This document shows positions 4,427 to 25,815 of a DNA stretch of 32,000 bases, piece after piece. The translations under genes were made by a program, and so were the position numbers. This DNA is from Bifidobacterium longum subsp. longum JCM 1217. Lineage in GTDB: Bacteria > Actinomycetota > Actinomycetes > Actinomycetales > Bifidobacteriaceae. Under the pieces are notes generated by a model. The model had not been told where the DNA came from. It ran no database searches and saw only the letters and a program-made list of their open reading frames with translations. The stretch lies in contig NC_015067.1 of assembly GCF_000196555.1 (NCBI RefSeq), forward strand, positions 1,170,001 through 1,202,000, given 5' to 3'. Position 1 is the stretch's first letter. Each line of letters begins with the position of its first letter.

Positions 4427-4714
4427 CATCCGGTAGAGGGGGTCGCGGGCGTTCTCGCGTCCCTTGCGGGCCGCCTCGGCCGGGGTGACGCCGGGCTTGG
4501 CGTGGATGAACCGGTGGATGGTGGTCCCGTTCACGTTGAGGGCGGCGATGCCGGTGGGCGCGAGGGTGAGCGTGTTGCGCGGCGCGATCGTGCTTCGCCA
4601 ATGGTTGACGAGGGTGCTTTTGCCCGTGCCCGCCTTGCCGGTCAGGATCGAGACGCCCTGGGGTTCGGACAGCATGGCGAGCGCCTTCGCGTCGAAAGTG
4701 AGGTCTTCGGTCAT
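4419..4714 (-). pseudogene. PIF1/RecD-like helicase, N-terminal fragment (Walker A)
   Basis: ORF 4403..4714 reads [36 protein letters not shown]...LAPTGIAALNV...DPLYRMLGA, then runs into the IS end (VCVQ, stop). Joining 4419 to 1975 and removing one GCGCCCAG copy restores ...[17 protein letters not shown]... in frame. Confidence 0.85.
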
Positions 4715-4748
4715 GCGCCGGGGTATGCGTCAGTCGGCCTCCGGGCCG

Positions 4749-5045
4749 TGTATGCATTCCGGCCGGGCTGTATGCATCCGTATGCATCAGGGGATGCATA
4801 CACGCCCGTTCTCCGTTTCGGCTTGTTTCCAGCGTTCCGGGGCGGCCTCCACGCGTGTATGCATTGTATGCATCATTCCCTTATAGAGGATTCGGGAAAA
4901 GGAAGGAAACCCCATATATTGATGCATACAATGCATACAAGATAAAGGAATTATATTTTTTCCTTTATTTATAAGGGTTTTCGGGCTTTTTCCGGGCTTT
5001 TTCTGTATGCATCCCCGGATGCATACAGATGCATACATGCATACA
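4749..5045. repeat. GTATGCAT box array, copy 1 (12 boxes; contains a 20-bp-arm inverted repeat at 4856-4875 / 4920-4939)
   Basis: Forward boxes (GTATGCAT) start at 4750, 4770, 4780, 4857, 4866 and 5005. Reverse boxes (ATGCATAC) start at 4794, 4922, 4931, 5019, 5029 and 5037. TGTATGCATTGTATGCATCA and TGATGCATACAATGCATACA are exact reverse complements separated by 44 bp. The array lies directly upstream of the helicase ATG (4712-4714). Confidence 0.9.
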
Positions 5046-5056
5046 TCGGGGTGAAA

Positions 5057-5163
5057 ACAGTACACTGACGGACTGTTTTCCAGGCCCTTCCGACCCCGAT
5101 ACGGTGGATCCATGGCCCCGGCGGGCATGACGAGGGGCGGCCGACAGTACACAGACGGACTGT
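5057..5163. repeat. two copies of the 20-mer ACAGTACAC(T/A)GACGGACTGT (5057-5076 and 5144-5163), each an ACAGT/ACTGT hairpin
   Basis: I read this directly from the sequence. The first copy is nested inside an ATCGGGGT...ACCCCGAT inverted repeat. The position is analogous to the palindromes that follow box-array copy 3. Confidence 0.7.
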
Positions 5164-5245
5164 TCGCGATTGAACGCCCGGATCGCCGACCCGTATGTTC
5201 CAGAGGGAAAGGAGTCTCGCGATGGAAGACAAGGACAGGCTGGAA

Positions 5246-5299
5246 GGGTTCGGACAGCATGGCGAGCGCCTTCGCGTCGAAAGTGAGGTCTTCGGTCAT
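5246..5299 (-). pseudogene. duplicated first 18 codons of the helicase gene ([18 protein letters not shown]) with no continuation
   Basis: The stretch from 5246 onward repeats the stretch from 4661 almost base for base. After SEP the reading frame diverges into non-helicase sequence. Confidence 0.8.
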
Positions 5300-5334
5300 G
5301 CGCCGGGGCATGCGTCCGATCGGCCTCCGGGCCG

Positions 5335-5631
5335 TGTATGCATTCCGGGGCGCGTGTATGCATCCGTATGCATCAGGGGATGCATACATGCCCGTTCTTC
5401 GTTTCGGCTTGTTTCCAGCGTTCCGGGGCGGCCTCCACGCGTGTATGCATTGTATGCATCATTCCCTTATAGGGGATTCGGGAAAAGGAAGGAAACCCCT
5501 TATATTGATGCATACAATGCATACAAGAGAAAGGAATTCTGTTCTTTCCTTTATATATAAGGGTTTTCGGGCTTTTTCCAAGCTTTTTCTGTATGCATCC
5601 CCGGATGCATACAAATGCATACATGCATACA
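5335..5631. repeat. GTATGCAT box array, copy 2 (12 boxes; 20-bp-arm inverted repeat at 5442-5461 / 5506-5525)
   Basis: It has the same box order and orientation as copy 1. It is part of a 385/386-bp direct repeat (4661-5045 versus 5246-5631). Confidence 0.9.
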
Positions 5632-5641
5632 GAACAGGCCG

Positions 5642-5764
5642 GGGGGACGTCACGATTGGCTGTACAGATGGACGCTGTACAGCCACACCGGGGCGTTGGT
5701 GAGGAAAATCCTCGCTAAGGACGTCGGACTGTCGGAGGTCGAGATTCGGGAGATACTCAAATGA
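5642..5764 (+). pseudogene. hicA: hicA toxin remnant (C-terminal ~27 codons only)
   Basis: There is no start codon. The frame ending at TGA 5762-5764 reads ...YSHTGALVRKILAKDVGLSEVEIREILK, which resembles the HicA C-terminus (xLRKAILKQLGLS type). Its stop overlaps the hicB ATG as ATGA. The 5' part has been replaced by box-array copy 2. Confidence 0.45.
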
Positions 5765-5985
5765 GCGCACACGTGAAATCAGTGAAGATCGTATACCACC
5801 GTGACGAGGGCGCATGGTGGGCCGACTCCCCGGACATGCCGGGATTCTCCGCCGTCGGGGACACCTTCGACGACACGAGGAAGCTTGCCCTCGAGGGCAT
5901 CCCCTTCTACTTCGATGGCAATAGGCCCGATATCGTGGACGAGCGCATGGAGAACGGGGCGAGCCTGAAGCCCACGAGACCGTAA
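5761..5985 (+). CDS. hicB: HicB-family antitoxin (short form)
   Basis: The 74-aa ORF reads VKIVYHRDEGAWWADSPDMPGFSAVGDTFDDTRKLALEGIPFYF. This matches the HicB N-terminal domain pattern (dg.wwa.vpdlPG..a.GdT.ee). Confidence 0.7.
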   Translation: MSAHVKSVKIVYHRDEGAWWADSPDMPGFSAVGDTFDDTRKLALEGIPFYFDGNRPDIVDERMENGASLKPTRP

Positions 5986-6046
5986 GACGCAACCCGGACG
6001 CCGTTCCGGGGGCGCATGTCACATCAAAGCTTAGAATCCCCCGGCT

Positions 6047-6870
6047 TTAGCCGTGGGGAGAAGTCAAATCATCCGAAGCGAGAAAAGGCCGGTCTTGGTA
6101 GAACGTCTCGCCAACACTACCGTTGTAGCATACGGTAATTGTATTGGCTGGGTGCATATTCTCGGTATTACCGACCATTGCGGTGCAACCGTTGTTCATC
6201 GCAGAAGAACCGATAAAGCGTATATCACCCGGAATCATATTTGCTTTTGTCAGCCTTGTTCCTTTAACAACGTCAAACAGCTTCCAAATAACAAACTCCT
6301 GCCATTCGGCTATGCCCAGCGCATGCTTGCTCTCATCGGCTTGCCTCAGCCTCTCAAGGCTTGCTTCAGACTCTCAAGGCTTGCTTCAGACTCTTTCATG
6401 ACTGCCGACATGTACTCGTCCATGTAAGCCCAATCAGGCTCGCCGGACGTATCAACGGGCAAACGAATCATTTCGTCTTCTATAGTCTTGGAATTTAACT
6501 GGTCAGAATACGTATATTTGGTCAGTGACTGGCGAATCACAGACGAAACAAATAGTCCCGACAGTTCTGTTAAACCTGCATTGTGCAACATCAAGATTGC
6601 AGAACCAGCACCACCACGACCCAGAAAAGGCTTGGCTTGATAAAAAGCTGAACCATCAATCGGACTTACTGTGATGCAATTTCCTGCATCCAGCACTTCA
6701 TCATCTTTTGGCTTACACCACTTAGTGACACCATTGTTGAAATTTCCAGATGCAACAAAAGGAATATTTCCGTCTTCATACTTTGCTTGACTACGAGCAA
6801 CTGGTCGCTTTATTTCAAACAACTTACCTATCTTGAACTCTTTCCATCCGTTCGTATCAATCTTCGCCAT
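6047..6870 (-). pseudogene. hsdS: HsdS-like specificity subunit, frameshifted and 3'-truncated
   Basis: ORF 6346..6870 holds TRD1 plus the central helix (GNIPFVASGNFNNGV...ITVSPIDGSAFYQAKPFLGRGG...SEASLESLKQALRG, stop). ORF 6047..6238, with its open upstream frame (LERLRQADESKHALGIAEWQEFVIWKLFDVVKGTRLTKANMIPGDIRFIGSSAMNNG...YNGSVGETFYQDRPFLASDD), holds TRD2 in a different frame. TRD2 ends abruptly without a distal conserved helix. Confidence 0.8.
6351..6390. repeat. perfect 20-bp tandem duplication (CTCTCAAGGCTTGCTTCAGA x2) inside the hsdS central helix
   Basis: 6351-6370 equals 6371-6390. Removing one copy reads ...KESEASLERLRQADESKHALGIAEWQEF..., which fuses TRD1 and TRD2 in frame. Confidence 0.9.
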
Positions 6871-8659
6871 CGCCGTCTCCGCCTTTCCTCATGGTTACGG
6901 TCACGGACTTGTCATCGGCGCTCACTCGGCTCGAATACATCGCTGTGTCCAGCAGCTTCTCGCCGAACTCCTTTGCGTCGATGCCCTGCCGGAACATCAG
7001 GTAGTCCATCGCCGTCTTGCGGAAGTCCTCCTCGAATATCTCGAACGGCTTCTGCGGCATCTGATAGGACAGGTGCTCGGCGGGGTTCACCCACTGGCAT
7101 GTATCGTCGCCGGACTGCTTCTCGACCACATCGACCCAATGAGCCTCAATGGCCGCCCACTTGCCGTAGACGTCATGGCGTCCCTTGTTCTTGACCGTCG
7201 CCAGACCATCGGACTCCATGTAACAGGCGAAAAACTCCTTGCCGTCCTGTCCGACGCCCGCCTCGAACACGAAGATGCTCGTGGTCACGCCCACGCCGAA
7301 GAACAGGTCTTCCGGCAGCTTGATGACCTTGCGCAGGCGATGGTTCTTCAGAATGCGCTTCATCTGCGCCTTCGATGCTTTCTCCAGCTTCTTGTCCGGC
7401 AGGATGAACGCGCACTGGGTATGTGCGGGAACGCTGTCCATCACGTTCTCGACGATGGTCATGCAGCCGTACTTGTTCTCGTACGGCGGGTTCATCAGCA
7501 CCTTCGTGATCGGCTTGGACTGCATCCATTCGTTGGCTGCATCCGTGCGAGTATCCATCTGTTCAAGGTTCGTCTTGCCGTCCTTGTGAATCAGCATGTT
7601 CGCGCACGCCAGCGCGTAAATCTCGCGGTCGAACTCGATGCCGTAGAGCTGCTTGGATTTAATCTCGCCGGCCTTCTTCGTTTCCATGCCGCCGGCCTCG
7701 CGAATCATGTTCGCCATGGCCTTCACGAGGAAGCCGCCGGAACCGCACGTGGCGTCCAGAACGCAGTCGTCCATGTTCACTTCGAGAATCTTGTATATGA
7801 AGTCCGTGATGTGCTCGGGCGTGAATATCTGCCCCGATTCGGACTTTTTCTTGTAACGGTTGAACTCGTTGAAGAAAATGCCCATCACGTCCTCGCCGCG
7901 CCATTCGTTCGAGTTGACGCACTCGGAAATCTCGACGACCCAGTCGATGAAGTCATTGATTGCCTTCTGGTTGTCGGTCGTGTTCATCTTGATGTCGGAA
8001 TATTCCTCCAGCAGGATGTCAATTTTCGCATTCTGTTTGCGACTGGCTATCAATGATTTTGCAAGCGTCGAGTGAATCGCCGTATGGAACGTCTCATACC
8101 CAAGGTCTTTCAGACGCTTCAATCCCGCACCGTAACGCTCGGCAACCAACGCGCATGCCGTGAAAATCATGCGGTGGTACAGGTTCTTGATGCCGAACTC
8201 GAAATGCAGGCAGTTGTTGATACGTGCCGTCAGCTGGTAGATGCGCTCCTTGTCGATGCTATCGACGGTATAGAGCGACAGGTAATAGCCGACATGCTGC
8301 AACTTGTCGGGCGTCTTGACTTCCTCCTCGCCCTTGAACACGCGCACATCCTCGCCGTTGTACAAAACGCCGACAACCTTCTCATATTGTGTCTGCATGA
8401 TGCGGACGTTCTTCAGCACCTCGTCCACCTGCGCCTTGCCCAGGGCAATGCGCGTCGCCTTCGTCTCCAACACCAGCGCTACATCCGCCTTGTTCTTCGG
8501 TAGATACCAGCCGTCCGGCTTGTCGGCAATGCCTGAAAATCCGAGCTGGTTGAACGTCGTGAGCTGGCCAACGCCGGCACAAGCCAAATCACTATCCGCA
8601 AGTCCAAGAATGTCACGTGCCAAATCGCGCACGGCATCCTCTGTCATATTCTTCGCCAC
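6857..8659 (-). CDS. N6-adenine DNA methyltransferase subunit with an N-terminal PD-X15-ExK nuclease-like motif (HsdM-like; possibly a BcgI-A-like type IIB R-M subunit)
   Basis: The product is 600 aa. It carries VLDATCGSGGFL (motif I) and LMNPPY (motif IV). N-terminal residues 48-67 read PDGWYLPKNKADVALVLETK. The gene overlaps the specificity gene by 14 nt. No hsdR is visible in the window. Confidence 0.85.
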   Translation of the reverse strand: MAKNMTEDAVRDLARDILGLADSDLACAGVGQLTTFNQLGFSGIADKPDGWYLPKNKADVALVLETKATRIALGKAQVDEVLKNVRIMQTQYEKVVGVLYNGEDVRVFKGEEEVKTPDKLQHVGYYLSLYTVDSIDKERIYQLTARINNCLHFEFGIKNLYHRMIFTACALVAERYGAGLKRLKDLGYETFHTAIHSTLAKSLIASRKQNAKIDILLEEYSDIKMNTTDNQKAINDFIDWVVEISECVNSNEWRGEDVMGIFFNEFNRYKKKSESGQIFTPEHITDFIYKILEVNMDDCVLDATCGSGGFLVKAMANMIREAGGMETKKAGEIKSKQLYGIEFDREIYALACANMLIHKDGKTNLEQMDTRTDAANEWMQSKPITKVLMNPPYENKYGCMTIVENVMDSVPAHTQCAFILPDKKLEKASKAQMKRILKNHRLRKVIKLPEDLFFGVGVTTSIFVFEAGVGQDGKEFFACYMESDGLATVKNKGRHDVYGKWAAIEAHWVDVVEKQSGDDTCQWVNPAEHLSYQMPQKPFEIFEEDFRKTAMDYLMFRQGIDAKEFGEKLLDTAMYSSRVSADDKSVTVTMRKGGDGDGED

Positions 8660-8889
8660 TACTCATCCACCTCCTCAAGATACTCCTGCACCCACTCGTG
8701 GATGATTGCGGCAATCGTCGTCCCACGCTCCGCAGCCGTCATCTTGAGCGCCTTCTTGTCGCTCACGGTGAGCGACAGCGAGAGCGTGGTGCGCTTCTCG
8801 TCCGCCGTCGTGTCGGCGACGACGGCCTCCTCTGTCTTCTTCTGCCCGGCCTCGCGGTCGGCGGCGTATTGCTCGAACATGTTCGCCAT
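8659..8889 (-). CDS. ribbon-helix-helix (CopG/Arc-like) DNA-binding protein
   Basis: I start it at MANMFEQY..., which is preceded by AAAGGAGG with 7-nt spacing. The segment TLSLSLTVSDKKALKMTAAERGTTIAAIIHEWVQEYL fits a beta-strand plus two-helix pattern. Its stop overlaps the methyltransferase start by 1 nt. Confidence 0.65.
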   Translation of the reverse strand: MANMFEQYAADREAGQKKTEEAVVADTTADEKRTTLSLSLTVSDKKALKMTAAERGTTIAAIIHEWVQEYLEEVDE

Positions 8890-8910
8890 GGCCCGACCTC
8901 CTTTAATCAT

Positions 8911-8926
8911 TTGCACAATTGCACAA
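8911..8926. promoter_or_regulatory. tandem 8-mer TTGCACAA TTGCACAA, candidate operator of the RHH/methyltransferase operon
   Basis: This direct repeat lies about 20 bp upstream of the RHH start, in the AT-rich divergent region between the RHH gene (-) and the exonuclease gene (+). RHH proteins typically bind tandem or inverted short repeats. Confidence 0.4.
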
Positions 8927-9066
8927 TCATACATCTTGCTTTATGGGATGCGCAGACGGAACATCGCCCTGACCTCCCAGAAGTGCCGGGACCGCACCCC
9001 GCGGAACCTTCCCAAGCATCCCCGTGGGATCCGCCCCCGTGGAATGCGTGACGCATACCCGGGGGC

Positions 9067-9624
9067 ATGAGCACACACGACAATGATGACAAGCCGGTCC
9101 GCCTCCTGTGGGTGGACACGGAGACCACGGGCCTCGACCCACGCAAGGATCCCATCCTCGAGATCGGCATGATCGCCACCGGCCCCGACCTGAAGCCGGT
9201 GGACGACGGGTTCCACACGACCGTCCACTGGGAAGGCAAACCATCCGAATTCATCCAGGGCATGCACGGGCCCAACGGACTGCTCGCCGAATGCGCGCAC
9301 CCGAGCGCCCCCCACATGTTCGCCGCCGCCCTGTCCGCACGCGACTACGTGGCCCGACACCTCGGCCAGGGGGTCCGCCTCCTGCCCGCCGGCAGCACCG
9401 TCCGCTTCGACCGGGACATGATCGACAGCTGGATGCCCGGCGTGCTCGACGGCTGCTCCCACCGGTCCCTGGACATCAGCGCCGTCTGCGAGGCCGTCCG
9501 CATGTGGAACCCCGCGATCCTGCCCGACATGGAACCGTCCACCGACCACCGGGTCATGCACTGCCTGGCCGACACGCTCCGCTACGCGCGCGCATACCGG
9601 GGGCTCATATGCTCGATCGGCTGA
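9067..9624 (+). CDS. oligoribonuclease (Orn)-like DEDDh 3'-5' exonuclease
   Basis: LLWVDTETTGLDPRKDPILEIGMIATGPDL..., GSTVRFDRDMI...HRSLDISAV...WNP and DHRVMHCLADTLRYARAYR are collinear with Orn ([52 protein letters not shown]..YYR). Confidence 0.75.
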   Translation: MSTHDNDDKPVRLLWVDTETTGLDPRKDPILEIGMIATGPDLKPVDDGFHTTVHWEGKPSEFIQGMHGPNGLLAECAHPSAPHMFAAALSARDYVARHLGQGVRLLPAGSTVRFDRDMIDSWMPGVLDGCSHRSLDISAVCEAVRMWNPAILPDMEPSTDHRVMHCLADTLRYARAYRGLICSIG

Positions 9625-9908: not shown

Positions 9909-10294
9909 GACGCCCGCCGCGCGGGTTCACCTCCTACGCCGCCTACGCCCTCTGGCATGCGGCCGTGTTCGCGTCCATGAACCTCCTGTACTGGCCGGCG
10001 GTCATCCCCGGACTCGCCGGAACGGTCCCGCCCGCGGCGGGCGTCCTGGTCGCGGGCATCGGGATCACGCTCGCCGCAGGCGTCGAATGCACGCAGGGAT
10101 ACGGTTTCGAGGAGGCACGCGAAGGCGGCTTCCATACCGGCCTCGCGGTCGCATGCCAGATGCCCGCCGTCTGCTTCCGCCTCATCCTCCTGACCATGGG
10201 AACGCCGGACGGAACCCTGTTCTGGACGCGCACGCTCGCCGTCCTGGGCGTGCTCGCATGGCAGACATGCTGCATCGTCATGGACCGGCTGTGA
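9905..10294 (+). CDS. multi-pass membrane protein
   Basis: The GTG start overlaps the preceding stop as GTGA. The sequence VRRPPRGFTSYAAYALWHAAVFASMNLLYWPAVIPGLAG...LVAGIGITLAAG...AVLGVLAWQTCCIVMDRL is hydrophobic throughout. Confidence 0.5.
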   Translation: MRRPPRGFTSYAAYALWHAAVFASMNLLYWPAVIPGLAGTVPPAAGVLVAGIGITLAAGVECTQGYGFEEAREGGFHTGLAVACQMPAVCFRLILLTMGTPDGTLFWTRTLAVLGVLAWQTCCIVMDRL

Positions 10295-10299
10295 CCACA

Positions 10300-10992
10300 A
10301 TGGGACGCATGACCAGACTCATCGACTACGGGGCGTGGGCGTCGTCCCGCTCCGACCCGTCGAAACGCCGCACATGGCCGTTGCGCCGCGCCGGATGGCG
10401 TTTCGACCGCGCGTCCGGCGCATGGGACGGGCCGGACGGCGAACGGCTGACCGTATCCTTCCTCGGGTTCGCCATCCTCGAACGGGAGGACGCGGACTGG
10501 GAGCATCCCGGCACGGGCTACGGGACGCAATGGCATGGCGGCAGGTACGGCATGCCATATGCCCGACGCGTCGACGGCGACTGGAGGCCCCGCGTGGCCG
10601 TCATGCTCGCCCGGAACGCCGTCAAGGTCCAGGATCTGATGCTCTCCCGTCCCCTGACCGCCGTGTCCGCGGCGGACGCGCGCCGGCTCCTCGTCCGGTG
10701 CCGGCGCGCCGCCGACCTGTATCCGCCCGACGATCCGGACCTGTTCCGGCGTCTCATGGACGGATTGGAGGAGAGGACGACGCGTATCGGATCGTACGCC
10801 ATGGTGGAATACCGGCGGGGGTTCGCCGGCCCGGTCCTCGCCCTGGCGGGCGGCCTGCTCACCCCGGTCGGCTCGTTCCTCCTCGGATCCGATCCGGCGG
10901 GGTTGGCGGGCATCGCCGCGCTCGCCGCCGGACTCGCCTGCTCCGGACTGTCCTCGCTGATCGACGGGACGGAACGCGCGGGCGGCGCATAG
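10300..10992 (+). CDS. hypothetical protein with a C-terminal hydrophobic anchor
   Basis: In the frame of ORF 10087..10992 it reads MGRMTRLIDYGAWASS...GTQWHGGRYGMPYARRVDGDW...FAGPVLALAGGLLTPVGSFLLG...AALAAGLACSGL. I recognise no family. Confidence 0.5.
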   Translation: MGRMTRLIDYGAWASSRSDPSKRRTWPLRRAGWRFDRASGAWDGPDGERLTVSFLGFAILEREDADWEHPGTGYGTQWHGGRYGMPYARRVDGDWRPRVAVMLARNAVKVQDLMLSRPLTAVSAADARRLLVRCRRAADLYPPDDPDLFRRLMDGLEERTTRIGSYAMVEYRRGFAGPVLALAGGLLTPVGSFLLGSDPAGLAGIAALAAGLACSGLSSLIDGTERAGGA

Positions 10993-11036
10993 GCGTCGCG
11001 CCGACGGCATGATCCGTTCATGAAAAGCGATATGCC

Positions 11037-11369
11037 ATGACCAATCCGAACCCAACCAATCTCAATACGCGCAACCAGCCTACGGGCAGCCGAACTATGC
11101 GCCGCCAGTTCAACCCCGTATACCCGCAGCCCACGGCATCCTATGGGAGAACCCCCTCCGACACAGGCTCCTTCGGTTTGGGCTGTTCTCGGCTTCTTCA
11201 TTCCTCTGGTCGGGCTTGTTTTCTGTGGATGATCTGGAAGAACGATCGTCCTGGTGATGCGGGCATGGCAGGCAAAGGCGCACTGGTTTCAGCGATCATC
11301 AACGTCGTGCTCTTCATCCTATGGATCGTGTTCGCAGGCATCCTATTCGCCGCATCCGGCTCCTACTAA
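11037..11369 (+). CDS. small Pro/Gln/Tyr-rich membrane protein, possibly frame-disrupted
   Basis: The ORF is intact and its C-terminus forms a clean TM helix (ALVSAIINVVLFILWIVFAGILF). The expected first TM helix (WAVLGFFIPLVGLVF) and a QYAQPAYGQPNYAPPVQP segment are encoded in the other two frames. See findings. Confidence 0.45.
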   Translation: MTNPNPTNLNTRNQPTGSRTMRRQFNPVYPQPTASYGRTPSDTGSFGLGCSRLLHSSGRACFLWMIWKNDRPGDAGMAGKGALVSAIINVVLFILWIVFAGILFAASGSY

Positions 11370-11403
11370 AGAGACAAACCGAAACGACAGTCCCATAAAA
11401 GAC

Positions 11404-11440
11404 GAGGGTGGCACATCCCATATCAGGATGCGTCACCCTC
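11404..11440 (-). terminator. rho-independent terminator downstream of paralogue 1
   Basis: On the minus strand GAGGGTGACGCATCC-loop-GGATGTGCCACCCTC (two mismatches) is followed by GTCTTTTAT. It lies between the convergent genes 11037..11369 and 11464..12456. Confidence 0.55.
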
Positions 11441-11463
11441 CTTCAAGCGGAAACTGAAAGCGA

Positions 11464-12456
11464 TTAGTTGCAGGGTACCTGGACGCCTGGTTTGCCACTG
11501 GTATCAACCGCCCAGCAAATATCCTCGTACCCGTCATCACCGCCGCCGCCCTGGGACGGCGGTGGCGCGGGCTGCGGCTGTGGCGTCGGCGTATAACCGC
11601 CTCCGGTCGAACCACCTGTGGACTGCTGTGGCATGTACGCGTACCCGCCCTGGGATTGCGTGTAGCCTCCGCCCGTGTATCCGGTGTAGCCTCCGGTTGT
11701 ATCGCCCGTGTAGGAGCCGCTGTTATCCGTCTGCGCCTGGGCGGCATTGTCGGCCGCCTGCTTCTCCTTTTCGGCCCTGGCATTCGCGTCCGCATCCGAC
11801 TTCGCCTTGATGGAGTCGTTGACCGCCTTCACCGCATCCGAGATCGCCTTCCCGTCCTTCGATTTGATGGCGTTCTCCAATGCGGCGCGAACCTTGTCGT
11901 CCTTCACCCTGCCCTTCGAATCATTCAGGATCCTGGTCGCGTCGGCAACAATCTTGTCGAGCTTCGAGGCGTTCACGGCCTCGGCCTCGGCCTTGACCTC
12001 GCCTACGGTCTTCGCGTACACGTCCGCGGTCTTGTCGAGCCACGCGGTCACGGCCTTGATGTCCTTCAACCCATCCGCCGGGCATCCGGGGATATCGGTT
12101 TTCGTCTTCGAGGCCGTCTTCACCGTCGAAGCCAACGTCCCGACCGTTTTCGCGTCCCTGACCTCCGAATCCTTGACCCTGATCGCGGTCTGCAGGGCGT
12201 CCGACTTCAGGTATTCCGTCAGCTTCTTCCGCGCCTTCACCGCCCTGTCGTATGAGGTGGCGCATTCCTCTGAAGCCGCCGTCAACCGATCATGGTTCCA
12301 ATACAGGCATCCGCCGATACCGCCCGCCGCGAGGACGACGGCGCATCCGCCCGCGATCACCGGCACCAGCCATTTCGGGCGCTTCGGTTTCGAGGCGGCG
12401 CGGGCGGCCCCCGACGGTTCCGTCGGGGGCTGGGGCACGGGATTCGATCCGCTCAT
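11464..12456 (-). CDS. membrane-anchored Ala/Lys/Asp-rich protein with a Gly/Tyr/Thr-rich tail and a C-terminal Cys loop (paralogue 1)
   Basis: I start it at MSGSNPVPQPP, preceded by AAGAGGA with 8-nt spacing. It has a TM segment WLVPVIAGGCAVVLAAGGIGGCLYW, a long helical A/K/D-rich region, then ...GGYTGYTGGGYTQSQGGYAY...CWAVDTSGKPGVQVPCN. Confidence 0.75.
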   Translation of the reverse strand: MSGSNPVPQPPTEPSGAARAASKPKRPKWLVPVIAGGCAVVLAAGGIGGCLYWNHDRLTAASEECATSYDRAVKARKKLTEYLKSDALQTAIRVKDSEVRDAKTVGTLASTVKTASKTKTDIPGCPADGLKDIKAVTAWLDKTADVYAKTVGEVKAEAEAVNASKLDKIVADATRILNDSKGRVKDDKVRAALENAIKSKDGKAISDAVKAVNDSIKAKSDADANARAEKEKQAADNAAQAQTDNSGSYTGDTTGGYTGYTGGGYTQSQGGYAYMPQQSTGGSTGGGYTPTPQPQPAPPPSQGGGGDDGYEDICWAVDTSGKPGVQVPCN

Positions 12457-12516
12457 GTTATGTTCCTCTTTCATGTTTCCGCTACGCGCACGATGATAAA
12501 TCATCAAAACAATAAA

Positions 12517-12555
12517 GAGGTGTGGCATATCCCATTATGGGATATACCACACCTC
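12517..12555 (-). terminator. rho-independent terminator between the two paralogues
   Basis: On the minus strand GAGGTGTGGTATATCCCAT/ATGGGATATGCCACACCTC forms a 19-bp stem with one mismatch, followed by TTTATTGTTTTGATG. Confidence 0.7.
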
Positions 12556-12575
12556 TCACGCGGAAAGAGGAAAGA

Positions 12576-13577: not shown

Positions 13578-13823
13578 GTTATGTTCCTCTTTCATGTTTC
13601 CGCTACGCGCACGATGGTAGCATCATGCGTGGCTTGTTCCGGTCGGTTTCCTCACATCCCGGGGATTCATCCATTCCTGGCGCTTGCCTCGGCTTCAATC
13701 ATCCCACGGTATGCGTCCCTCGGGAAGCCAACGGATTTAAACCATGAAAGTGAACCGGGTGCCGCATCCCCTGCGGCCCGTCATGGGCCGGGGGGGATGC
13801 GGCACCCTTTGCCGTCCCGCGTG

Positions 13824-16903: not shown

Positions 16904-17824
16904 CTAGCCGAGCGCGTCCCTGACCTTGACGACGATGTCGAGCAACGGGGACAGGAGACCCGTCGGCCCGTACGTCCTTCGCAGCCGATCGTATTCGACG
17001 CACGCGTCCCGGACGGTCACGTCCCAGCCCTCACGGGCGATTAGCGGATACCGGCCGGCCGTGTTCAGGCTGCGGCGCACCGGCCCGAACATCAACCGGT
17101 ATCGGAGCCATGCGAGACGCGGCCGCGCGGAATCCTCCAACGTTCGCGCCCGGTCGAGGATGAGCGTCGCACCGTAACGCAGCATGCAGGCGCGAACCGT
17201 CATGTCAAGGTCCTCCGCGTCGCCGGTCCGGTACGTCCACCCGGGGTATGGGACGCGACGGGAGCGCATGCCGTCCATCAGGCCGCGCCGTTCCCGCCCG
17301 GCCACGCATACGCTGGCGCTTAGGCCGGTGGCCCGGCCCATGACCATGAGCATCGCGGAATCCCCCGCCGTCCGCCCCATGACCAGGCTCCGCTCGGAAT
17401 AGCGGAACGGGGACCGATCCCGTCTCCACGAGGCGTCCCGATGGAAGTAGCGCGCCGGGTTCGCGTCGAACACGCCGTGCCCGATGAGGAACGGCCGTAT
17501 CGTGATATGCCCCTGTCCCGTCATGGCGGCCCATGGTACGCGCGTCCGAACCGGCCGGTCCCGTCGTGTCCCGTGATGCGGACGGGGGATGGCATCCCAG
17601 CCGGCCGCGTAGCCGACGGCCAGGAGCATGAGGCGCGGAGCCCACACGCCGCCGGCGGCGAACGGGGCGAGCACGGCGGCGAACAGGGCGAGACGCGCGG
17701 GCCATGGGCCGGGGCCCGCCGCCCGCGCCCACCGTTCCCGGCCCGCGTCCAGGAGCATGAGGGGGACGAGCCAGCGCAGCAGGATTCCCGCGGCCGGCCA
17801 GAACAGGATGACGATCGGGGTCAT
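16904..17824 (-). CDS. hypothetical membrane protein
   Basis: I start it at MTPIVILFWPAAGILLRWLVPLMLL, preceded by GGGAGG. There are two or three N-terminal hydrophobic helices. I recognise no family. Confidence 0.55.
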   Translation of the reverse strand: MTPIVILFWPAAGILLRWLVPLMLLDAGRERWARAAGPGPWPARLALFAAVLAPFAAGGVWAPRLMLLAVGYAAGWDAIPRPHHGTRRDRPVRTRVPWAAMTGQGHITIRPFLIGHGVFDANPARYFHRDASWRRDRSPFRYSERSLVMGRTAGDSAMLMVMGRATGLSASVCVAGRERRGLMDGMRSRRVPYPGWTYRTGDAEDLDMTVRACMLRYGATLILDRARTLEDSARPRLAWLRYRLMFGPVRRSLNTAGRYPLIAREGWDVTVRDACVEYDRLRRTYGPTGLLSPLLDIVVKVRDALG

Positions 17825-17827
17825 GCC

Positions 17828-17860
17828 TCCCGTATGCGTCCGTCCGGAACGCATACGGGA
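17828..17860. promoter_or_regulatory. inverted repeat TCCCGTATGCGT-N9-ACGCATACGGGA in a divergent intergenic region
   Basis: The 12-bp arms are perfect and each contains the ACGCATAC box. The repeat lies between the starts of 16904..17824 (-) and 17913..18608 (+). Confidence 0.6.
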
Positions 17861-17912
17861 GGCATGCAGCAGGGGACGCCCGTCCCCGCACCCACAAGGA
17901 AAGGAAACCGTC

Positions 17913-18923: not shown

Positions 18924-20234
18924 TCAGACGGCGAGCCTTTCGCGCACGCGGAGCGCCCAGTCGACCGCCATGGCGGCCTGCGGGGGCACGACCCCGTTGC
19001 CCAGGGCGCGCAGTTGGAGGTTCCTGTGATTGCCGTCCACATGCCGCCAGATCGCCGGATCGGTGACCCAGCCGTCCTCCAGGCCCATCATCCATTCCAC
19101 GAACCTCGGGGATAGGTGGGCGGCCGACGGGAACCGGGGGCCTTCGAATCGGGTCTTCCAATAACCGAGCACGCTTTTGTCGGGCAGACGGGTCGCGGGG
19201 ATCGGGATGTCCGGGTCCATGTCCTTGCAGCCGGGCCAGAACATGGGGTCGATGAGGCTCATCCCCCGGTCGGTTTCACGCCAGAGCGCGAGCATGCGGT
19301 CGCGCATCGGCTGGTCCAGCCGGGCTTTCGGATGCGCGTCGAACGGGGCGTGGCGGGCGAGCCAGTACGGTTCGAACAGCGTGGGGTCGTCGGCGTTCGC
19401 CCCGACCCAGCGGCGCAGGCCGCCGGTCGCCTGCGTGGGACAGGGGGCGGGACGGCCGGACACCCGCTCCCAGCGGCGGATCGCGGCGGCGAACCGGCCG
19501 AAGCGCACGCCCCGCCCGTCGTCCAGACCCCAGAGTCCCCCATGATAGGGGCCGGGCGCGGGGATCGCGCGCGTCCCCTGTTCGACGGCGCCGGTCATGC
19601 ATGTCTGGTCGTTCCTCTGATTGCGGCCTTTCACGTCGCTGGCGCGCGGCGTGGGCATCATATCCACATCATCCGTCATCACGTCCTCCCTCAGGTTCCC
19701 GGTCGAATCGCGTCGGCTCCCGTCCCGGTCGCCGCGACGCAGGACGCGTTCCAACGCGGCCCCGTCGCGGGGCGCGATCGCATCCATGCAGTTCGGCGTG
19801 GCGAACAGGCGGGCTTCCGGCAGGATGTCGATGTCGTCGCTCTTCTCCGCCCAGTCGGCGACGGTGACCGCATGCCCCATGGCCGCGCGGCGTTCCGGGA
19901 TCATCGTGCCCCCGTTCCACTCGTTCGACGTGGGCGTGGGCAGGTGGTCGATGTCGTCGCGCAGGTTCCGGTAGCCGGCGCCTTTTCCGGCGCGCGGCCG
20001 TTCCGCATCCGCATGCGGGGGCAGCATGTCCATACAGTTCGGCGTGCCCGGCAGTTCGTTTTCGCTCATGCCCGTCGTATGCGTTCCCATGATCCGGATC
20101 TCCCCCGCGTCGAGGATCGCGTTCACCAGGGCGACGCCCCGCCAGTTCTCCCCCGGCCGCCAGCAGCCGCGCACCGTATGCCGGGTCGCGTCCATCACCG
20201 TCGGCGTGGGCAGCCACAGATCGTCATCAGTCAT
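18924..20234 (-). CDS. C5-cytosine methyltransferase, C-terminal portion (TRD repeats plus motifs IX-X)
   Basis: LPTPT, TPNCMD, LPTPTSNEW and MPTPRASDVKG repeats are present. FGRFAAAIRRWERVSGRPAPCP and SPRFVEWMMGLEDGWVTD...QLRALGNGVVPPQAAMAV give the ENV-family C-terminal motifs (GNxVVP). Motifs I-VIII are absent. The start could be ATG 20234 or GTG 20240. Confidence 0.7.
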   Translation of the reverse strand: MTDDDLWLPTPTVMDATRHTVRGCWRPGENWRGVALVNAILDAGEIRIMGTHTTGMSENELPGTPNCMDMLPPHADAERPRAGKGAGYRNLRDDIDHLPTPTSNEWNGGTMIPERRAAMGHAVTVADWAEKSDDIDILPEARLFATPNCMDAIAPRDGAALERVLRRGDRDGSRRDSTGNLREDVMTDDVDMMPTPRASDVKGRNQRNDQTCMTGAVEQGTRAIPAPGPYHGGLWGLDDGRGVRFGRFAAAIRRWERVSGRPAPCPTQATGGLRRWVGANADDPTLFEPYWLARHAPFDAHPKARLDQPMRDRMLALWRETDRGMSLIDPMFWPGCKDMDPDIPIPATRLPDKSVLGYWKTRFEGPRFPSAAHLSPRFVEWMMGLEDGWVTDPAIWRHVDGNHRNLQLRALGNGVVPPQAAMAVDWALRVRERLAV

Positions 20235-20415
20235 GGCCACGGGTATGCGTCAGGCGGGGCAGGCGTATCGGATCATGGAAACGGGACGGTCCCCGCCGTT
20301 CCAGACCCTTAGTCTTGGCCGCATGGACATCATCCGCTTGACTTCCTCCCCCGCCTAAAGAGGCGGGAGTCTGCGCCACCCAAACAAAGATCAAGACTCC
20401 CAGTATTTCCTTCAT
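20227..20415 (-). CDS. possible 62-aa peptide with a hydrophobic N-terminus inside the methyltransferase intervening sequence
   Basis: GGGGGAGGA lies 6 nt before the ATG. The product reads MKEILGVLIFVWVAQTPASLGGGGS.... Its stop overlaps the next ORF start by 8 nt. The only support is the RBS and the open frame. Confidence 0.3.
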   Translation of the reverse strand: MKEILGVLIFVWVAQTPASLGGGGSQADDVHAAKTKGLERRGPSRFHDPIRLPRLTHTRGHD

Positions 20416-22238: not shown

Positions 22239-22280
22239 ACGCGGCTGTATGCGTTCCGAGGCATTCGAAAAAACCCGTCA

Positions 22281-22337: not shown

Positions 22338-22742
22338 TCAATCCTCGACGATCCCGTCGGGCGTCCATTCGCATGCATAATAGGGTCCGTTGTCGGTCAT
22401 CCACCCGTCCTTCCCGTCCGCCGGACGCCCCTCGTAGCGGCTGATGTCGGCGATGGCCGGATCGTCGGTCTTGTGGAGGCGGATGAGGTCGCCCGGCTCC
22501 GGTTCGCGCCGTACGGCCTCGGGCAGCACGGCGTCCGGGTCGGGGAACGCGGAGCCGTCCCCGACCCAATGGTCGGTGCAGTCCGAGTCCACGATGTAGG
22601 ATTCGCCCGCATCGGTCCTGCCGGCCAATGCGGGGCGGAAGCGCGACCATTCGTCGCCGTCCCGTTGGATCAAGATCCCGCCTTTGATGCGGTCGAGGAG
22701 GCTTGCGGGCAGGTTCTCCCAACCGATGATGTCCTCGTTCAT
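22338..22742 (-). CDS. hypothetical acidic protein (start uncertain: 22742 or 22802)
   Basis: This is the C-terminal part of track ORF 22338..24026. It reads MNEDIIGWENLPASLLDRIKGGILIQRDGDEWSRF...GPYYACEWTPDGIVED. The upstream two thirds of the track ORF are antisense to the 22917..23996 gene. ACGCATGC lies 8 nt before ATG 22742. Confidence 0.55.
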   Translation of the reverse strand: MNEDIIGWENLPASLLDRIKGGILIQRDGDEWSRFRPALAGRTDAGESYIVDSDCTDHWVGDGSAFPDPDAVLPEAVRREPEPGDLIRLHKTDDPAIADISRYEGRPADGKDGWMTDNGPYYACEWTPDGIVED

Positions 22743-22875
22743 GCCCGCGCGCATGCGTCCCCGACGCATGGCCTCCGGTTCCGCGGACGGGTTCGAGGAC
22801 ATGGTGCTCACGGCCGTCGACCTCGGCATCGGCCCGACGACCATTCCCATCCGACGGACGGTCCACAAGACGACG

Positions 22876-22913
22876 ATCCGGCTATGCGCCGTCGCGGGGG
22901 CGCATAGCCGGAT
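22876..22913. promoter_or_regulatory. perfect 15-bp inverted repeat ATCCGGCTATGCGCC-N8-GGCGCATAGCCGGAT immediately upstream of the 22917 start
   Basis: I read it directly from the sequence. The right arm ends 3 nt before the ATG and contains the box variant GCGCATAG. Confidence 0.6.
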
Positions 22914-22916
22914 CGC

Positions 22917-23996
22917 ATGGTCATGGACAGGAACAATCGAAGCCACCGGGCGAAGGGCCTTCCCCAAGGGTGTGCGGGCACCTTCGAGCCGGCGTCCGGC
23001 ACGGCGGGCGGAGACGTCATGCCGCCCGCCGCCGAGGATCTCGACCCGAAACGCTACGGGCACAAGAGGGCCGTCAGGCTTGTGAACTGGCGGGTCGAAC
23101 ACGATCCGACCAGCCTGTGGCTGCAAGACCGGCTCAAGGCCACCATGCCCGGCGTGGACGCGGACGGCAACCCGTTCGACTACCGGGACGAGCCGGTGCT
23201 CGACCCGGCGGCCGAGGCGCGCATGATCGACGACGCGGTCTACCGGGAGGATGCGGACGGACGCCCGCACTACGGGCGGATCATGCGCGCCCTCGCCTCC
23301 TGGTATCCGAACGAGGCGGAACGCTTCGACATGGCGCGCAGGATCGCGGAGGACCGGTGCGACGCGCTGCGACGCAACGTGATCGGCGACCCGGCCCGAT
23401 GCTACTCCGCCAGGCTCGTCGGCTACGCGCTCACCCGCCCCGTGCGCATGGAGGCGATCCTCGCCCGTCCGCCCTACAATCTGAGCGCGCACCGGATGCG
23501 CGTCGGCAAACGGTACATGGACCGGATCGGCGCGTACGCGCGCGAACACGGCGGACGACTGCCCGACAAAAGGCAGCGCGACCGGATCTGGGACGAGAAC
23601 ATGGGCGACTTCATCCACGAGAAGATCGCGAAGGGCGTCCAGTACGGGCGCGGCATGTACTATTCCGACGGGTCGAACGCGCGCCCCGAATACCATGGGC
23701 GCCCGCCCCGTCTGGACGCGGACGGGAACCCGTTCAACGCGCGCGAGGACTTCGAACGCATGCTGGCCGCCGGACGTGCGGAGCTCGGTCGGACGCCCGC
23801 CGAATTCGACGACGTGGTCAACAGGATGGACGCGCATGCGGCGTTCGCCCCGGGGGGCGCGGACGCGCACGCCGCATGGGCGGAGGCGCGCCGGCGCGGC
23901 CTGGACGTGCGCCTGGTCGAGGCCGCGCTCGACGTGGACGCGTCGGACGCGGCCGCATGGGAGGCGGAGTATCAGGCGAGCTCGGGCACCCGGTAG
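22917..23996 (+). CDS. hypothetical protein with an N-terminal DRNNRxHRxxGLPQGxAGTFxP motif
   Basis: The 359-aa ORF has balanced composition (…WYPNEAERFDMARRIAEDRCDALRRNVIGD...YMDRIGAYAREHGGRLPDKRQRDRIWDENMGDFIHEKI...). It shares its first ~35 aa with ORF 28070..28453. Confidence 0.65.
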   Translation: MVMDRNNRSHRAKGLPQGCAGTFEPASGTAGGDVMPPAAEDLDPKRYGHKRAVRLVNWRVEHDPTSLWLQDRLKATMPGVDADGNPFDYRDEPVLDPAAEARMIDDAVYREDADGRPHYGRIMRALASWYPNEAERFDMARRIAEDRCDALRRNVIGDPARCYSARLVGYALTRPVRMEAILARPPYNLSAHRMRVGKRYMDRIGAYAREHGGRLPDKRQRDRIWDENMGDFIHEKIAKGVQYGRGMYYSDGSNARPEYHGRPPRLDADGNPFNAREDFERMLAAGRAELGRTPAEFDDVVNRMDAHAAFAPGGADAHAAWAEARRRGLDVRLVEAALDVDASDAAAWEAEYQASSGTR

Positions 23997-24493
23997 GTGC
24001 GGGGCACGGCCGCGCCCGCGGGCCACATGTCATGGTCGCGGGCGAACCTGACCGTCACGTTGACGACGGTCCCGGGCATGGGGCGGGCGAGCATCGCGTC
24101 CAGGCCCTTTTTGTCGCCGGCCAGCCAGAACACGAGGAGCGCGAGGTCCATGGCGCCGGCCGCGCATCCGGGCCTCGTCCCGACGAGCGTCGAAAGCGTG
24201 TCGCGCGCGGCCGTCAGCCGGCCGGGCCTGGGCGTGACGGGGATGGGACGGCGGCGCAGCACGTCCATCGCCTCCCCCATGCCGGCGGGCAGGCGCGGGT
24301 GATCCGCGGCGCGTGCGGCGAGCGTGCGCGCGTCGCACGTCGGGTCGAGGAGGGCGAGCGCCATCATGTCGCGTCCCCTGGGATCGTTCAGGCCGGCGGC
24401 GAGCCGGTCGGCGGTCTGGTCGTTCATCCACGTGCCCGCGCCGCCTTCGAGGCGCGCGATCCACTCGTTGGCCAGGTTCATGTAGTCTTCCAT
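23972..24493 (-). CDS. hypothetical protein
   Basis: GGAGGA lies 7 nt before ATG 24493. The product reads MEDYMNLANEWIARLEGGAGTWMNDQTADRLAAGL...LLVFWLAGDKKGLDAML.... It lies downstream of the N6/N4 methyltransferase on the same strand. Confidence 0.6.
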   Translation of the reverse strand: MEDYMNLANEWIARLEGGAGTWMNDQTADRLAAGLNDPRGRDMMALALLDPTCDARTLAARAADHPRLPAGMGEAMDVLRRRPIPVTPRPGRLTAARDTLSTLVGTRPGCAAGAMDLALLVFWLAGDKKGLDAMLARPMPGTVVNVTVRFARDHDMWPAGAAVPRTYRVPELA

Positions 24494-24548
24494 TGCCGTT
24501 CCTCCGTTTCGACGGTGTTGTGCGCCCCGGGTATGCGTTCCCCGTCCG

Positions 24549-25775
24549 TCAGAAGAGCGGGAGGCTTGCGGGGCGTTCGAGCCGGTCGGCCGTGAGCGGC
24601 AGGTACGTGGGGTCGAGCTCCGTGGCCGCGCACCGCAGGCCTTCCCGCCGGCATGCGTCCAGTGTGGTGCCGGAGCCGGCGAACGGGTCGAGGACGAGGC
24701 CGTGGGGCGGGCATGCGAGGCGGGCGAGCCATCGGGTCAGGTCCAGGGGTTTGACGGTCGGGTGGGCGAGCCGTCTTTCGCCCGCCGGCACGGTCAGGGC
24801 GAGCGCCGCCGTGTCGAGCAGGCACGCGGGGTACGCGTCCGCCCCGGATTCGAGTCCCAGGCGCGCGCAGCACGCCTTCCACGCCTTGTCCCGTGTCCGG
24901 GGGCGGACGATGCGTTCCAGGACGCGCACGGGCCTGTCCTGCGCTTTCGGGCAGTAGTAGAAGCGCGGCGCGTCCGCGGGCAGGAGCCGGGCCATGGCCT
25001 TGTCCATGAGGACGTTCGACGGGTGGCGGCCCGGTATGCGCGGCCCCATGGGCCTGGGCGTGTCCGAATCGCGGAACGTGTCGCCGCCGCGCGGCGCGTC
25101 CGGACGCCCCCCGGCGGTCGCGTTGAGCCGGTAGCGGCGCCCCAGCTCCCCCATGTCCGCGTCCAGGGCGCAGGCGGCCACGTTCAGGGCGCCCGTCCCG
25201 TGGTCCATGAGGTTGCGGCCGAGCATGGACTCGCGGGGGCGCTGGGCGACGAGGATCGGCTCCCATGCGGGTTTGAGCGCCGGGTTGAACCCGCGCCAGG
25301 GCCGCGCCTCGCGGGTCTTCGCCTCGTAGCGTTCCGTGTAGGCGACGTTGCGTTCCAGGGACGCGGAGTCGCGTATGACGCCGGTCCGGTCGTCCTTCAC
25401 GCCGAGCGCCCGGTCGACCGCATGGTCGCCCCATTCGCCCTTCGGCATGCCGGACGCGTACAGCCAGCAGAACTGGTCGCGGATCAGCCAGCCCGCGTCC
25501 TCCATGGCGCAGGCGAGCCGGTGCCAGGTGCGGGGCGAGCCGAACACGAGGGCGAACGCGCCGGGGCGGACCATGCCGAGCATGGCCGTCCAGAATTCCG
25601 GGTCGAAGGCGATGCCGGTGGAGTCCCAGCGTTTCACCTCGCCCGCGGTGCCCAGGCCGAGCTCGTAGGGCGGGTCGGTGACGATCGCGTCCGCGGGCGC
25701 GTCGAGGAGGCCGGGCAGGCGTCTCGCGTCCGCGTTGTACAGGGTCAGGCCGTCATGGTCGATGAATGGTCTCAT
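24549..25775 (-). CDS. beta-class N6-adenine/N4-cytosine DNA methyltransferase (DPPY ... FAGSGTT order)
   Basis: I start it at [20 protein letters not shown]. Motifs seen: [11 protein letters not shown] (motif IV), GRHPSNVL and [16 protein letters not shown]...[15 protein letters not shown] (motif I). The track ORF extends upstream only by reading through the box array (MMHTMHTR...). Confidence 0.85.
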
Positions 25776-25815
25776 GGGCCCCGTGTATGCGTCCGCCGGG
25801 GCGGGCGTCGGGCCC

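Follow-up and report, generated by a model that had tools for sequence, protein, structure and literature searches.

A 32,000-nucleotide stretch of the genome of Bifidobacterium longum subsp. longum JCM 1217 (NC_015067.1, positions 1,170,001 to 1,202,000; hereafter the window), which belongs to a large conjugative element of high GC content that is integrated in this species, carries the 8-mer ACGCATAC again and again just upstream of start codons. A preliminary description, made from the sequence alone, had seen in this box either the operator of a global regulator or a translational operator acting in the mRNA, and thereby raised the question of what the box does and whether it does so as DNA or as RNA. 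The recurrence of the box is real, statistically strong and evolutionarily conserved, and its features suggest that it probably forms the -10-region core of a non-canonical promoter class specific to the element, many of whose mRNAs would be leaderless; we assign this reading a probability of about 0.6. A search of the literature for the box 8-mers found nothing.

Occurrence of the box in the window

The consensus of the box is (A/G)CGCAT(A/G)(C/G), mostly with G or GG directly 5' of it. The window has 13 exact copies of ACGCATAC when both strands are counted. Dinucleotide-preserving shuffles gave 0.60 +/- 0.74, and none of them contained more than 3, so that the over-representation first estimated by hand was borne out. 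Twelve of these copies lie outside the box arrays described below, and 8 of the 12 are followed by an ATG at a spacer of 7-9 nt (0.64 expected, P = 2.7e-8); when the window copies were read in the opposite orientation, no peak of ATGs at this spacer was found.

The nearly fixed distance reported for seven starts was correct in every coordinate, with spacers of 7-9 nt, and the relaxed variants were also found where they had been described (GCGCATAC at 9590, spacer 11; ACGCATGC at 22751, spacer 8; GCGCATAG at 22900, spacer 9), as were the intergenic copies at 13709, 24531 and 28055 and that of GCGCATAC at 18683. Inside genes, copies were confirmed at 17304, 25034 and 30237, those at 25034 and 30237 reading R-I-P. 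Several copies had been overlooked, namely 17849(+), 26106(+), 5308(-), GCGCATAG at 28484, CGGCATAG at 30065 and GCGCGTAG at 12482 and 13603 (Table 1). The proposal of an element-wide, start-proximal motif therefore stands: the motif is orientation-specific and akin to the box arrays, and the genes that it precedes form a regulon-like set.

Wrongly chosen gene starts had been named as one way in which the fixed spacing could prove false, and public gene calls as well as Pfam boundaries support the starts used here. The same products of 103, 185, 99, 306, 436, 509 and 408 amino acids (aa) are called in public assemblies, and only 6-16 residues separate the proposed Met from the beginning of the Pfam domain. 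For the helicase, the exonuclease, the C5-methyltransferase and the 359-aa protein, the box-led ATG is the first possible start, an in-frame stop lying 4-14 codons upstream. The start of the 134-aa open reading frame (ORF; ATG 22742) is uncertain.

Conservation of the box in related elements

Syntenic loci of B. myosotis (L046), of Bifidobacterium sp. SO1 (L047) and of a metagenome contig (L048) were reached through homologues of the N6/N4 DNA methyltransferase (63-73% identity), and in these loci many genes bear (A/G)CGCAT(A/G)(C/G) 8-9 nt before the ATG. When the sequences upstream of the orthologous methyltransferase, C5-methyltransferase, 436-aa, 359-aa and 253-aa genes of the four species were aligned, the box alone was conserved, while the spacer, the flanks and even the first codons diverged. 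Comparison with related elements, which had been recommended as a check of motif and spacing, thus showed the box kept at orthologous genes at 8-9 nt; for both the N6/N4 methyltransferase and the 253-aa gene it was present in 4/4 orthologues. The gene of the single-stranded DNA (ssDNA)-binding protein has a strong Shine-Dalgarno (SD) sequence in 4/4 species. Two public gene calls in L047 and L048 were corrected by the box rule.

Gene statistics were obtained from 104 independently called genes of five elements, 32 of which were box-led (spacer 8 in 16 and 9 in 12). A strong SD accompanied only 2 of the 32, compared with 39 of the 72 other genes (P = 2e-6), and position -1 was a pyrimidine in 30 of them (C in 26), compared with 39/72 (P = 4e-5). 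An A was found at +4 in 22/32 box-led and 28/72 other genes, and the excess of ATG starts (30/32 vs 61/72) was not significant. In an unbiased count of 5-mers between -22 and -5, the top two were GCATA (27/104 genes, 1.9 expected, P = 4e-23) and GGAGG (26 genes), and 26 of the 33 occurrences of GCAT(A/G) started at -14 or -15. The same positions emerged without annotation, since the number of GCAT(A/G) before ATGs opening at least 80 codons rose from a background of about 8 to 47 at -14 and 21 at -15. As a control we used the 198-kb B. longum megaplasmid NZ_CP065398, for which this count gave no peak at -14/-15.

A second group of 17 genes was found to have a sense-oriented box 21-56 nt upstream, in front of an SD-containing leader (3.9 expected, P = 2e-7). 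It includes 4/4 orthologues of the 173-aa gene, which keep their leadered box at 37, 53, 56 and 50 nt in the four species, and the leadered cases of the window are 24531 (start at 24493), 17849 (17913), 28484 (28453) and 28055 (27982).

A putative promoter with partly leaderless transcripts

The A/T content of the regions upstream of box-led genes is 97% at -12 and -11 and 10-30% elsewhere. A TANNNT sequence occurs within 60 nt upstream in 6 of 29 box-led genes, and in 3 of these it is a variant of the box itself with the TA at -12/-11; a canonical σ70 scan gave nothing in the arrays or at box-led starts. Because promoters of the σ70 family need a -10 element and most box-led genes have no other candidate in the 60 nt upstream, the box must supply the -10 function. 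The combination of a missing SD, a pyrimidine at -1 and an A at +1 equals the Y(-1)R(+1) signature and also points to transcription initiation, as do the leadered boxes in front of SD-containing genes, since a translation signal would not behave in this way. Y(-1)R(+1) is universal at transcription starts, and about 15% of those of B. pseudolongum are leaderless (PMC4782308). The signature also accounts for what had been taken as the second of two GCAT half-sites: this "GCAT" is better read as the pyrimidine at -1, usually C, joined to the ATG.

From the observed enrichment, geometry, SD exclusion, pyrimidine-purine signature, cross-species conservation and absence of another -10 candidate, we infer that transcription begins 8-9 nt downstream of the box on a purine that follows a pyrimidine. 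This purine would be the A of the ATG for about 30% of the genes, giving an mRNA with neither leader nor SD that would be translated as a leaderless message, and the counts of SD, ATG and pyrimidine at -1 given above agree with this as far as sequence features go. In a further 15-20% of the genes the box would drive a transcript with a leader of about 15-50 nt and a normal SD. The TA, found at -12/-11 or -11/-10 in box-led sites, would occupy the place of the canonical -12/-11 TA, with the conserved CGCA at -16 to -13 and without the canonical T at -7, suggesting that something other than plain host σA probably reads the box: an alternative or element-encoded sigma-like factor, or σA together with a box-binding protein.

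The local context at two places fits a promoter. The 88-bp region between two divergent genes (17825-17912) contains just two back-to-back boxes, and a hairpin with a 16-bp stem and a T6 run ends 14 nt before the box at 22247. Within the 436-aa gene, the box followed by the in-frame ATG 20069 may be an internal leaderless start yielding an N-terminally shortened product of 381 aa, a form that one public assembly calls (L044 15707-16852).

Several observations weigh against a promoter role. The most conserved positions of bifidobacterial -10 hexamers are A2 (the A at -11) and T6 (the T at -7) (PMC10832533); this T is missing from the box, and the ACGCATGC variant lacks even the A of TA. About 100 kb of the element family revealed neither a sigma factor nor an RNA polymerase nor an obvious box-binding protein, and Pfam and PHROGs scans of about 60 proteins from the window and the relative gave none. 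Inverted TATGCG partners, which about half of the promoter boxes have 0-14 nt upstream, and densely packed arrays of the near-identical box ATGCATAC are typical of transcription-factor sites and not of -10 elements. Finally, the palindrome at 17849(+) produces a box-plus-ATG that would open an out-of-frame leaderless ORF, and in a few cases the preceding gene ends only beyond the box-led start.

A σ54 reading (GG-N10-GC), judged by eye, was dropped because the placement of GG was inconsistent; to our knowledge, rpoN is not expected in this phylum.

Comparison with known promoter systems

The box recalls an actinobacterial leaderless -10 in its geometry and a single-element phage promoter in its logic. 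Leaderless promoters of Actinomycetota (TANNNT about 6-7 nt before the start codon, often without a -35) have in common with it a single -10-region element with TA at -12/-11, the lack of an SD, a start codon at the (here inferred) transcription start and the pyrimidine-purine pair at -1/+1. However, the element reads CGCATA(C/G) here, has CGCA at -16 to -13, has no T at -7 in 26/29 sites, and is confined to one element family, being absent from the B. longum megaplasmid. A canonical σA leaderless promoter (TANNNT at about -12 to -7) was rejected, the sixth-position T being present in 3/29 sites.

The B. breve megaplasmid pMP7017 carries a 34-bp motif that overlaps the -10 of 19 promoters, concerns about 24% of its genes, is absent from chromosomes and has been proposed to be a transcription-factor site (PMC10832533). 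Both systems belong to large bifidobacterial conjugative elements with a conserved motif of their own at many -10 regions, but the pMP7017 motif contains a canonical TATACT hexamer and drives leadered mRNAs with ribosome-binding sites. Its core TATACTGAATATG has 10 copies in the B. longum megaplasmid and 0 in the loci of the element family, indicating that the two systems are distinct, and the motif AWAYATGYTATACTGAATATGTCCACATAAAAWA had no match in the window at up to 3 mismatches.

Late promoters of phage T4 have TATAAATA at -10, which is read by gp55. They resemble the box in that an element of about 8 bp at -10 suffices without a -35 and marks a class of mobile-element genes; the box differs in containing G and C, and no gp55-like or sigma gene was found.

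Rather speculatively, the element might possess its own transcription-specificity system. The CGCATA box would then be read by a factor that has escaped recognition, sigma-like or associated with the polymerase, maybe also in array hairpins on incoming ssDNA, so that leaderless anti-restriction and replication genes would fire right after conjugative entry. If so, these early genes would be independent of the promoter rules of the host and of the SD. We consider such a system doubtful.

Box arrays and a possible operator role

Besides the single boxes, the window contains three arrays (Table 1). They are copies of a module of about 330 bp, an imperfect palindrome with six GTATGCAT boxes on the left, six ATGCATAC boxes on the right and an AT-rich centre, in which boxes of both orientations, 12 per array, are spaced 8-10 bp apart; its core is near-invariant in 10 copies from three genomes. 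Position 2 of the box is T in the arrays (ATGCATAC) and C at promoters (ACGCATAC or GCGCATAG), a split kept across species. Arrays, split and inverted partners look like protein binding sites, which means that the box may be an operator too or fill both roles. The arrays themselves could be a regulatory hub or sink, a centromere-like site, or a single-strand promoter or origin.

The strongest alternative to a promoter is that the boxes are only operators of a global regulator encoded by the element, single boxes covering the -10 and start of promoters that are recognised otherwise and the ATGCATAC arrays acting as high-affinity clusters (hubs, sinks or centromere-like sites). The properties of the arrays and the inverted partners, at variable distance, speak for this, as do the perfect 18-nt palindrome at 17832/17849 and the split at position 2, which would fit two affinity classes, and another Bifidobacterium conjugative element offers a precedent (PMC10832533). 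Nevertheless, most box-led genes have no second -10 candidate that the box could merely overlap, and operators do not demand a strict orientation and a spacing of 8-9 nt to a pyrimidine-purine start. No candidate binding protein was found: the only ribbon-helix-helix match is weak (E = 0.005) and lies inside a low-GC restriction-modification island, and the XRE-family gene beside array 3 has palindromes of its own. Operators alone are thus an unlikely explanation, although a box combining -10 and operator would be compatible with the promoter that we favour.

The IncP plasmid RK2 has palindromic KorA and KorB sites, the latter at variable distance from promoters, and the ribbon-helix-helix protein ω of pSM19035 binds arrays of 7-bp units in mixed orientation that serve as operators and centromeres and lie upstream of the -35. 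One short sequence at many promoters of an element is what these regulons and the box have in common. The comparison with KorB and its OB sites made in the preliminary description holds as a functional analogy only, because the box is asymmetric and occupies one fixed place, -16 to -9, as the sole A/T island. A regulon of the IncP type proper, with a palindromic 13-bp operator and a KorB of the ParB family, was rejected, given the asymmetric, orientation-specific box, and no KorB, ParB or ω homologue was present among the proteins scanned, about half of the element. Compared with the ω arrays, those described here consist of 8-mers spaced 8-10 bp apart in both orientations.

The palindromes near the XRE-family gene are two copies of CTTTACAATATTGTAAAG. 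They are probably autoregulatory operators of the XRE protein, outside the box family, and more likely targets of this protein than the boxes. The L048 counterpart of the gene is preceded by similar TTACAATAATG repeats. In the AT-rich centre of array 3, the canonical-looking -10 hexamers TATAAT (26018-26023, minus strand) and TATATT (25983-25988, plus strand) face each other across the double box ATGCATACAATGCATAC and could be σA promoters under box control. The gene-free stretch that precedes the methyltransferase of Bifidobacterium sp. SO1 (L047 7061-10001) holds, beside ATGCATAC, about 30 copies of a second repeat, GTAGGAAC/CGTAGGAA.

Single-stranded DNA, mRNA and chance as explanations

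Frpo/ssi promoters are ssDNA hairpins of the leading region that rebuild a -35 and a -10 and depend on orientation. The arrays and hairpin-capable box pairs could act as such Frpo/ssi-like or as sso-like elements, folding upon entry into the recipient and rebuilding double-stranded boxes from which early leaderless genes or primers would start. Each strand of array 3 is indeed predicted to fold into a single long, nested hairpin (-110 and -114 kcal/mol; z = -13 and -11), and genes typical of a leading region are close by (orphan methyltransferases, ssDNA-binding protein, helicase, exonuclease and primase-polymerase). The likeness to Frpo/ssi and sso, which concerns the arrays only, lies in repeated modules of about 300 nt, a strong ssDNA fold and the neighbouring ssDNA-binding and anti-restriction-type genes; moreover, a 187-kb relative has at least 6 copies of the module, and B. 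myosotis has about nine in a tandem row whose period is about 600 bp (L046 4137-9553). Nonetheless, the array stems lack a canonical -35/-10, consist of one repeated 8-mer and are not uniformly oriented. By inspection, complementarity rarely extends clearly past the boxes and covariation between paralogous units was not seen, being inconsistent in the B. myosotis arrays, and box-led genes are on both strands and mostly not beside an array. This role is very unlikely.

Even less probable is an action at the RNA level, in which the box would signal translation independently of an SD or be bound by a translational regulator, as proposed for the start-associated sequences (SAS) of Cluster K mycobacteriophages. 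The box does take the usual place of the SD and exclude it, and some box-led starts overlap the preceding gene (ATG 9609; L047 1257). Like SAS/ESAS, it is a short asymmetric motif in one orientation just before many non-structural gene starts of an actinobacterial mobile element, with an ATG bias and, in about half of the cases, an upstream inverted repeat at a variable spacer (PMC3203893, PMC12699233). The SAS, however, is a 13-bp sequence, GGGATAGGAGCCC, which includes the SD core at a distance of 3-7 bp from the start, while the box excludes the SD, stands 8-9 nt away and is also found far upstream of SD-led genes; we therefore rejected the box as an SAS. The 17 leadered genes oppose an action in RNA, as does the box's lack of complementarity to the anti-SD. 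The pyrimidine at -1 is a signature of transcription starts (PMC4782308), and no other promoter-like A/T element lies upstream that could make a leader containing the box. The RNA-level translational operator put forward earlier is not sustained by these results, and with leaderless mRNAs the box would remain untranscribed.

The probability of an artefact (chance, recent duplication of a promoter-plus-start cassette, or wrong starts) is practically nil, for although one recent duplication (5308 from 4723) and two uncertain starts (134 aa and 99 aa) do exist, shuffles and the spacing test oppose chance, flanks and N-terminal coding sequences are unrelated among sites, independent gene calls and Pfam boundaries back the starts, and the box is kept across species at 52-73% protein identity in diverged surroundings.

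Significance of the box

Element-specific promoter or operator motifs as such are already known, and what is new is best described as a non-canonical promoter box of a Bifidobacterium conjugative-element family. As a species, B. longum is of major importance both as a gut commensal and as a probiotic, and hardly anything is known of the biology of its large conjugative elements. In the family described here, one non-canonical box of 8 bp would drive nearly half of the genes, with a third of all genes probably being leaderless, and this box offers a concrete handle on how the element is switched on. Since pMP7017 and the present element, which are unrelated, both have a private motif, this may perhaps be a general strategy of large mobile elements. 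In annotation, several public calls lengthen or shorten box-led genes, which a box-based rule would correct, and in bifidobacterial genetics the box is a candidate orthogonal promoter.

Table 1. Boxes, arrays and palindromes of the window. Spacer, nucleotides between box and ATG.
Feature	Coordinates (strand)	Motif	Spacer	ATG	Remarks
PIF1-like helicase	4712..4730 (-)	ACGCATAC 4723-4730	8	4714	
Array 1	4734..5046 (+)	12 ATGCATAC/GTATGCAT boxes			Boxes around AT-rich core
Duplicated helicase start	5297..5315 (-)	ACGCATGC 5308-5315	8		Variant; within 586-bp tandem duplication
Array 2	5320..5631 (+)				Tandem-duplicated copy of array 1
RNase_T-type exonuclease, 185 aa	9051..9069 (+)	ACGCATAC 9051-9058	8	9067	No SD; inverted partner ATGCGT directly abutting upstream
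99-aa gene	9590..9611 (+)	GCGCATAC	11	9609	Weak variant; assignment uncertain because it falls inside the 3' end of the exonuclease gene
Cell-surface protein paralogue	12472..12489 (-)	GCGCGTAG	7	12474	Variant
Second cell-surface paralogue	13593..13610 (-)	GCGCGTAG	7	13595	Variant; more oriented boxes upstream, ACGCATGA at 13623 and ACGCATAC at 13709
Divergent back-to-back box pair	17822..17866	CATGCCTCCCGTATGCGT, 9 nt, ACGCATACGGGAGGCATG			Perfect 18-nt palindrome
306-aa membrane protein		Box 17832-17839 (-)	7	17824	
231-aa gene		Box 17849-17856 (+)	56	17913	Leader has SD AAGGAAAGGA
Internal start in 436-aa gene	20067..20084 (-)	ACGCATAC	7	20069	ATG in frame
436-aa protein, methyltransferase-like C-terminus	20232..20250 (-)	ACGCATAC 20243-20250	8	20234	
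C5 cytosine methyltransferase, 509 aa	22236..22254 (-)	ACGCATAC 22247-22254	8	22238	
134-aa ORF	22740..22758 (-)	ACGCATGC	8	22742	Inverted partner ATGCGT 5 nt upstream
359-aa gene	22900..22919 (+)	GCGCATAG	9	22917	Inverted partner TATGCGC 10 nt upstream; site conserved in L047 and L048 orthologues
173-aa gene	24493..24538 (-)	ACGCATAC 24531-24538	37	24493	Leadered; SD GGAGG in interval
N6/N4 DNA methyltransferase, 408 aa	25773..25792 (-)	ACGCATAC 25785-25792	9	25775	
Array 3	25800..26114 (+)	11 ATGCATAC-type boxes and terminal ACGCATAC 26106-26113			Between methyltransferase and XRE genes
Palindromes, two copies	26130-26147 and 26161-26178	CTTTACAATATTGTAAAG			Perfect, 18 bp; between array 3 and XRE-family gene (26220-26771)
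Enc34-type ssDNA-binding protein	27982..28062 (-)	ACGCATAC 28055-28062	72	27982	ATG is SD-led
127-aa gene	28451..28491 (-)	GCGCATAG 28484-28491	30	28453	ATG is SD-led
253-aa gene	30053..30072 (-)	CGGCATAG at 30065	9	30055	Variant; AGGAGG also present

The host element and neighbouring features

The element has a G+C content of 65-73% and is integrated in Bifidobacterium chromosomes of 2.34-2.39 Mb. The window and its flanking loci encode a VirB4/TcpF-like AAA_10 ATPase (1382 aa), CHAP/NlpC-P60 hydrolases, DUF2637, a sortase, SpaA-type surface proteins, a primase-polymerase/DUF5906 protein, a PIF1-like helicase, an Enc34-type ssDNA-binding protein, an HNH protein, an RNase_T exonuclease and several orphan DNA methyltransferases, a content indicating a conjugative element rich in anti-restriction-type cargo. 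CP139157.1 (L037) matches the window, its IS21-type insertion included, one product has 100% identity to a protein labelled Bifidobacterium longum, and a 186.7-kb IMG/VR contig, the relative with at least six array modules mentioned above, is 95-99% identical across the common parts. The megaplasmid NZ_CP065398 was rejected as a relative, the motif system being absent; the sole segment in common with B. longum megaplasmids of the pMP7017 type, which lack the motif, is a 2.8-kb cell-surface gene. Plasmid and phage collections gave no array matches, the phages yielding only trivial methyltransferase matches, and the 19-mer of the array core had only chance matches in unrelated metagenome-assembled genomes among the genome contigs.

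The proteins of the 359-aa and 127-aa genes begin with a common, conserved N-terminus (22917-22990 and 28380-28453), M-x-x-DRNNR-x-HR-x-x-GLPQG-x-AGTF. In homologues of the C5-methyltransferase and of another large protein, related elements have Hint_2 or LAGLIDADG domains (L047 16212-19127; L048 15333-17990; L019 2050-5241). The copy in the window lacks these domains, which are probably inteins or homing endonucleases. The only Rfam match, "Transposase-2 RNA" (RF03015; 18711-18778, plus strand, 60.9 bits), adjoins the GCGCATAC at 18683, is unrelated to the box and has no transposase gene directly beside it.

The PIF1-like helicase gene, intact (451 aa) in the IMG/VR relative (L018), is cut into an N-terminal fragment (4403-4714) and 908-1963 by an IS21-family insertion (1976-4418) that encodes a transposase with rve/Mu-transposase C-terminal domain (2818-4284) and an IstB-like protein (2060-2821). 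The 586-bp tandem duplication (4661-5246 and 5246-5631) covers the helicase start, its box and the whole array, and the box of the second copy is mutated to ACGCATGC.

The cell-surface genes at 9913-12743 and the paralogues at 11464-12474 and 12576-13595 are 93% identical to B. longum megaplasmid genes and internally duplicated (repeat families D1, D8 and D9), suggesting that the two kinds of conjugative element have been in exchange recently.

The low-GC island (5700-8950, 48-57% G+C) is probably a separate insertion and encodes a type I-like N6 methyltransferase (6857-8659), specificity-subunit fragments, a small HicB-like ORF (5761-5985) and the weak ribbon-helix-helix ORF (8659-8934). Between this island and the exonuclease gene, the relative L010 has an extra array copy that is missing from the window. 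The genes to the left of the island differ between strains, being lysozyme/CHAP and DUF2637 in CP049767.1 (L035) and the PIF1 helicase in CP139157.1, an arrangement that fits rearrangement or recombination at the repeated array modules.

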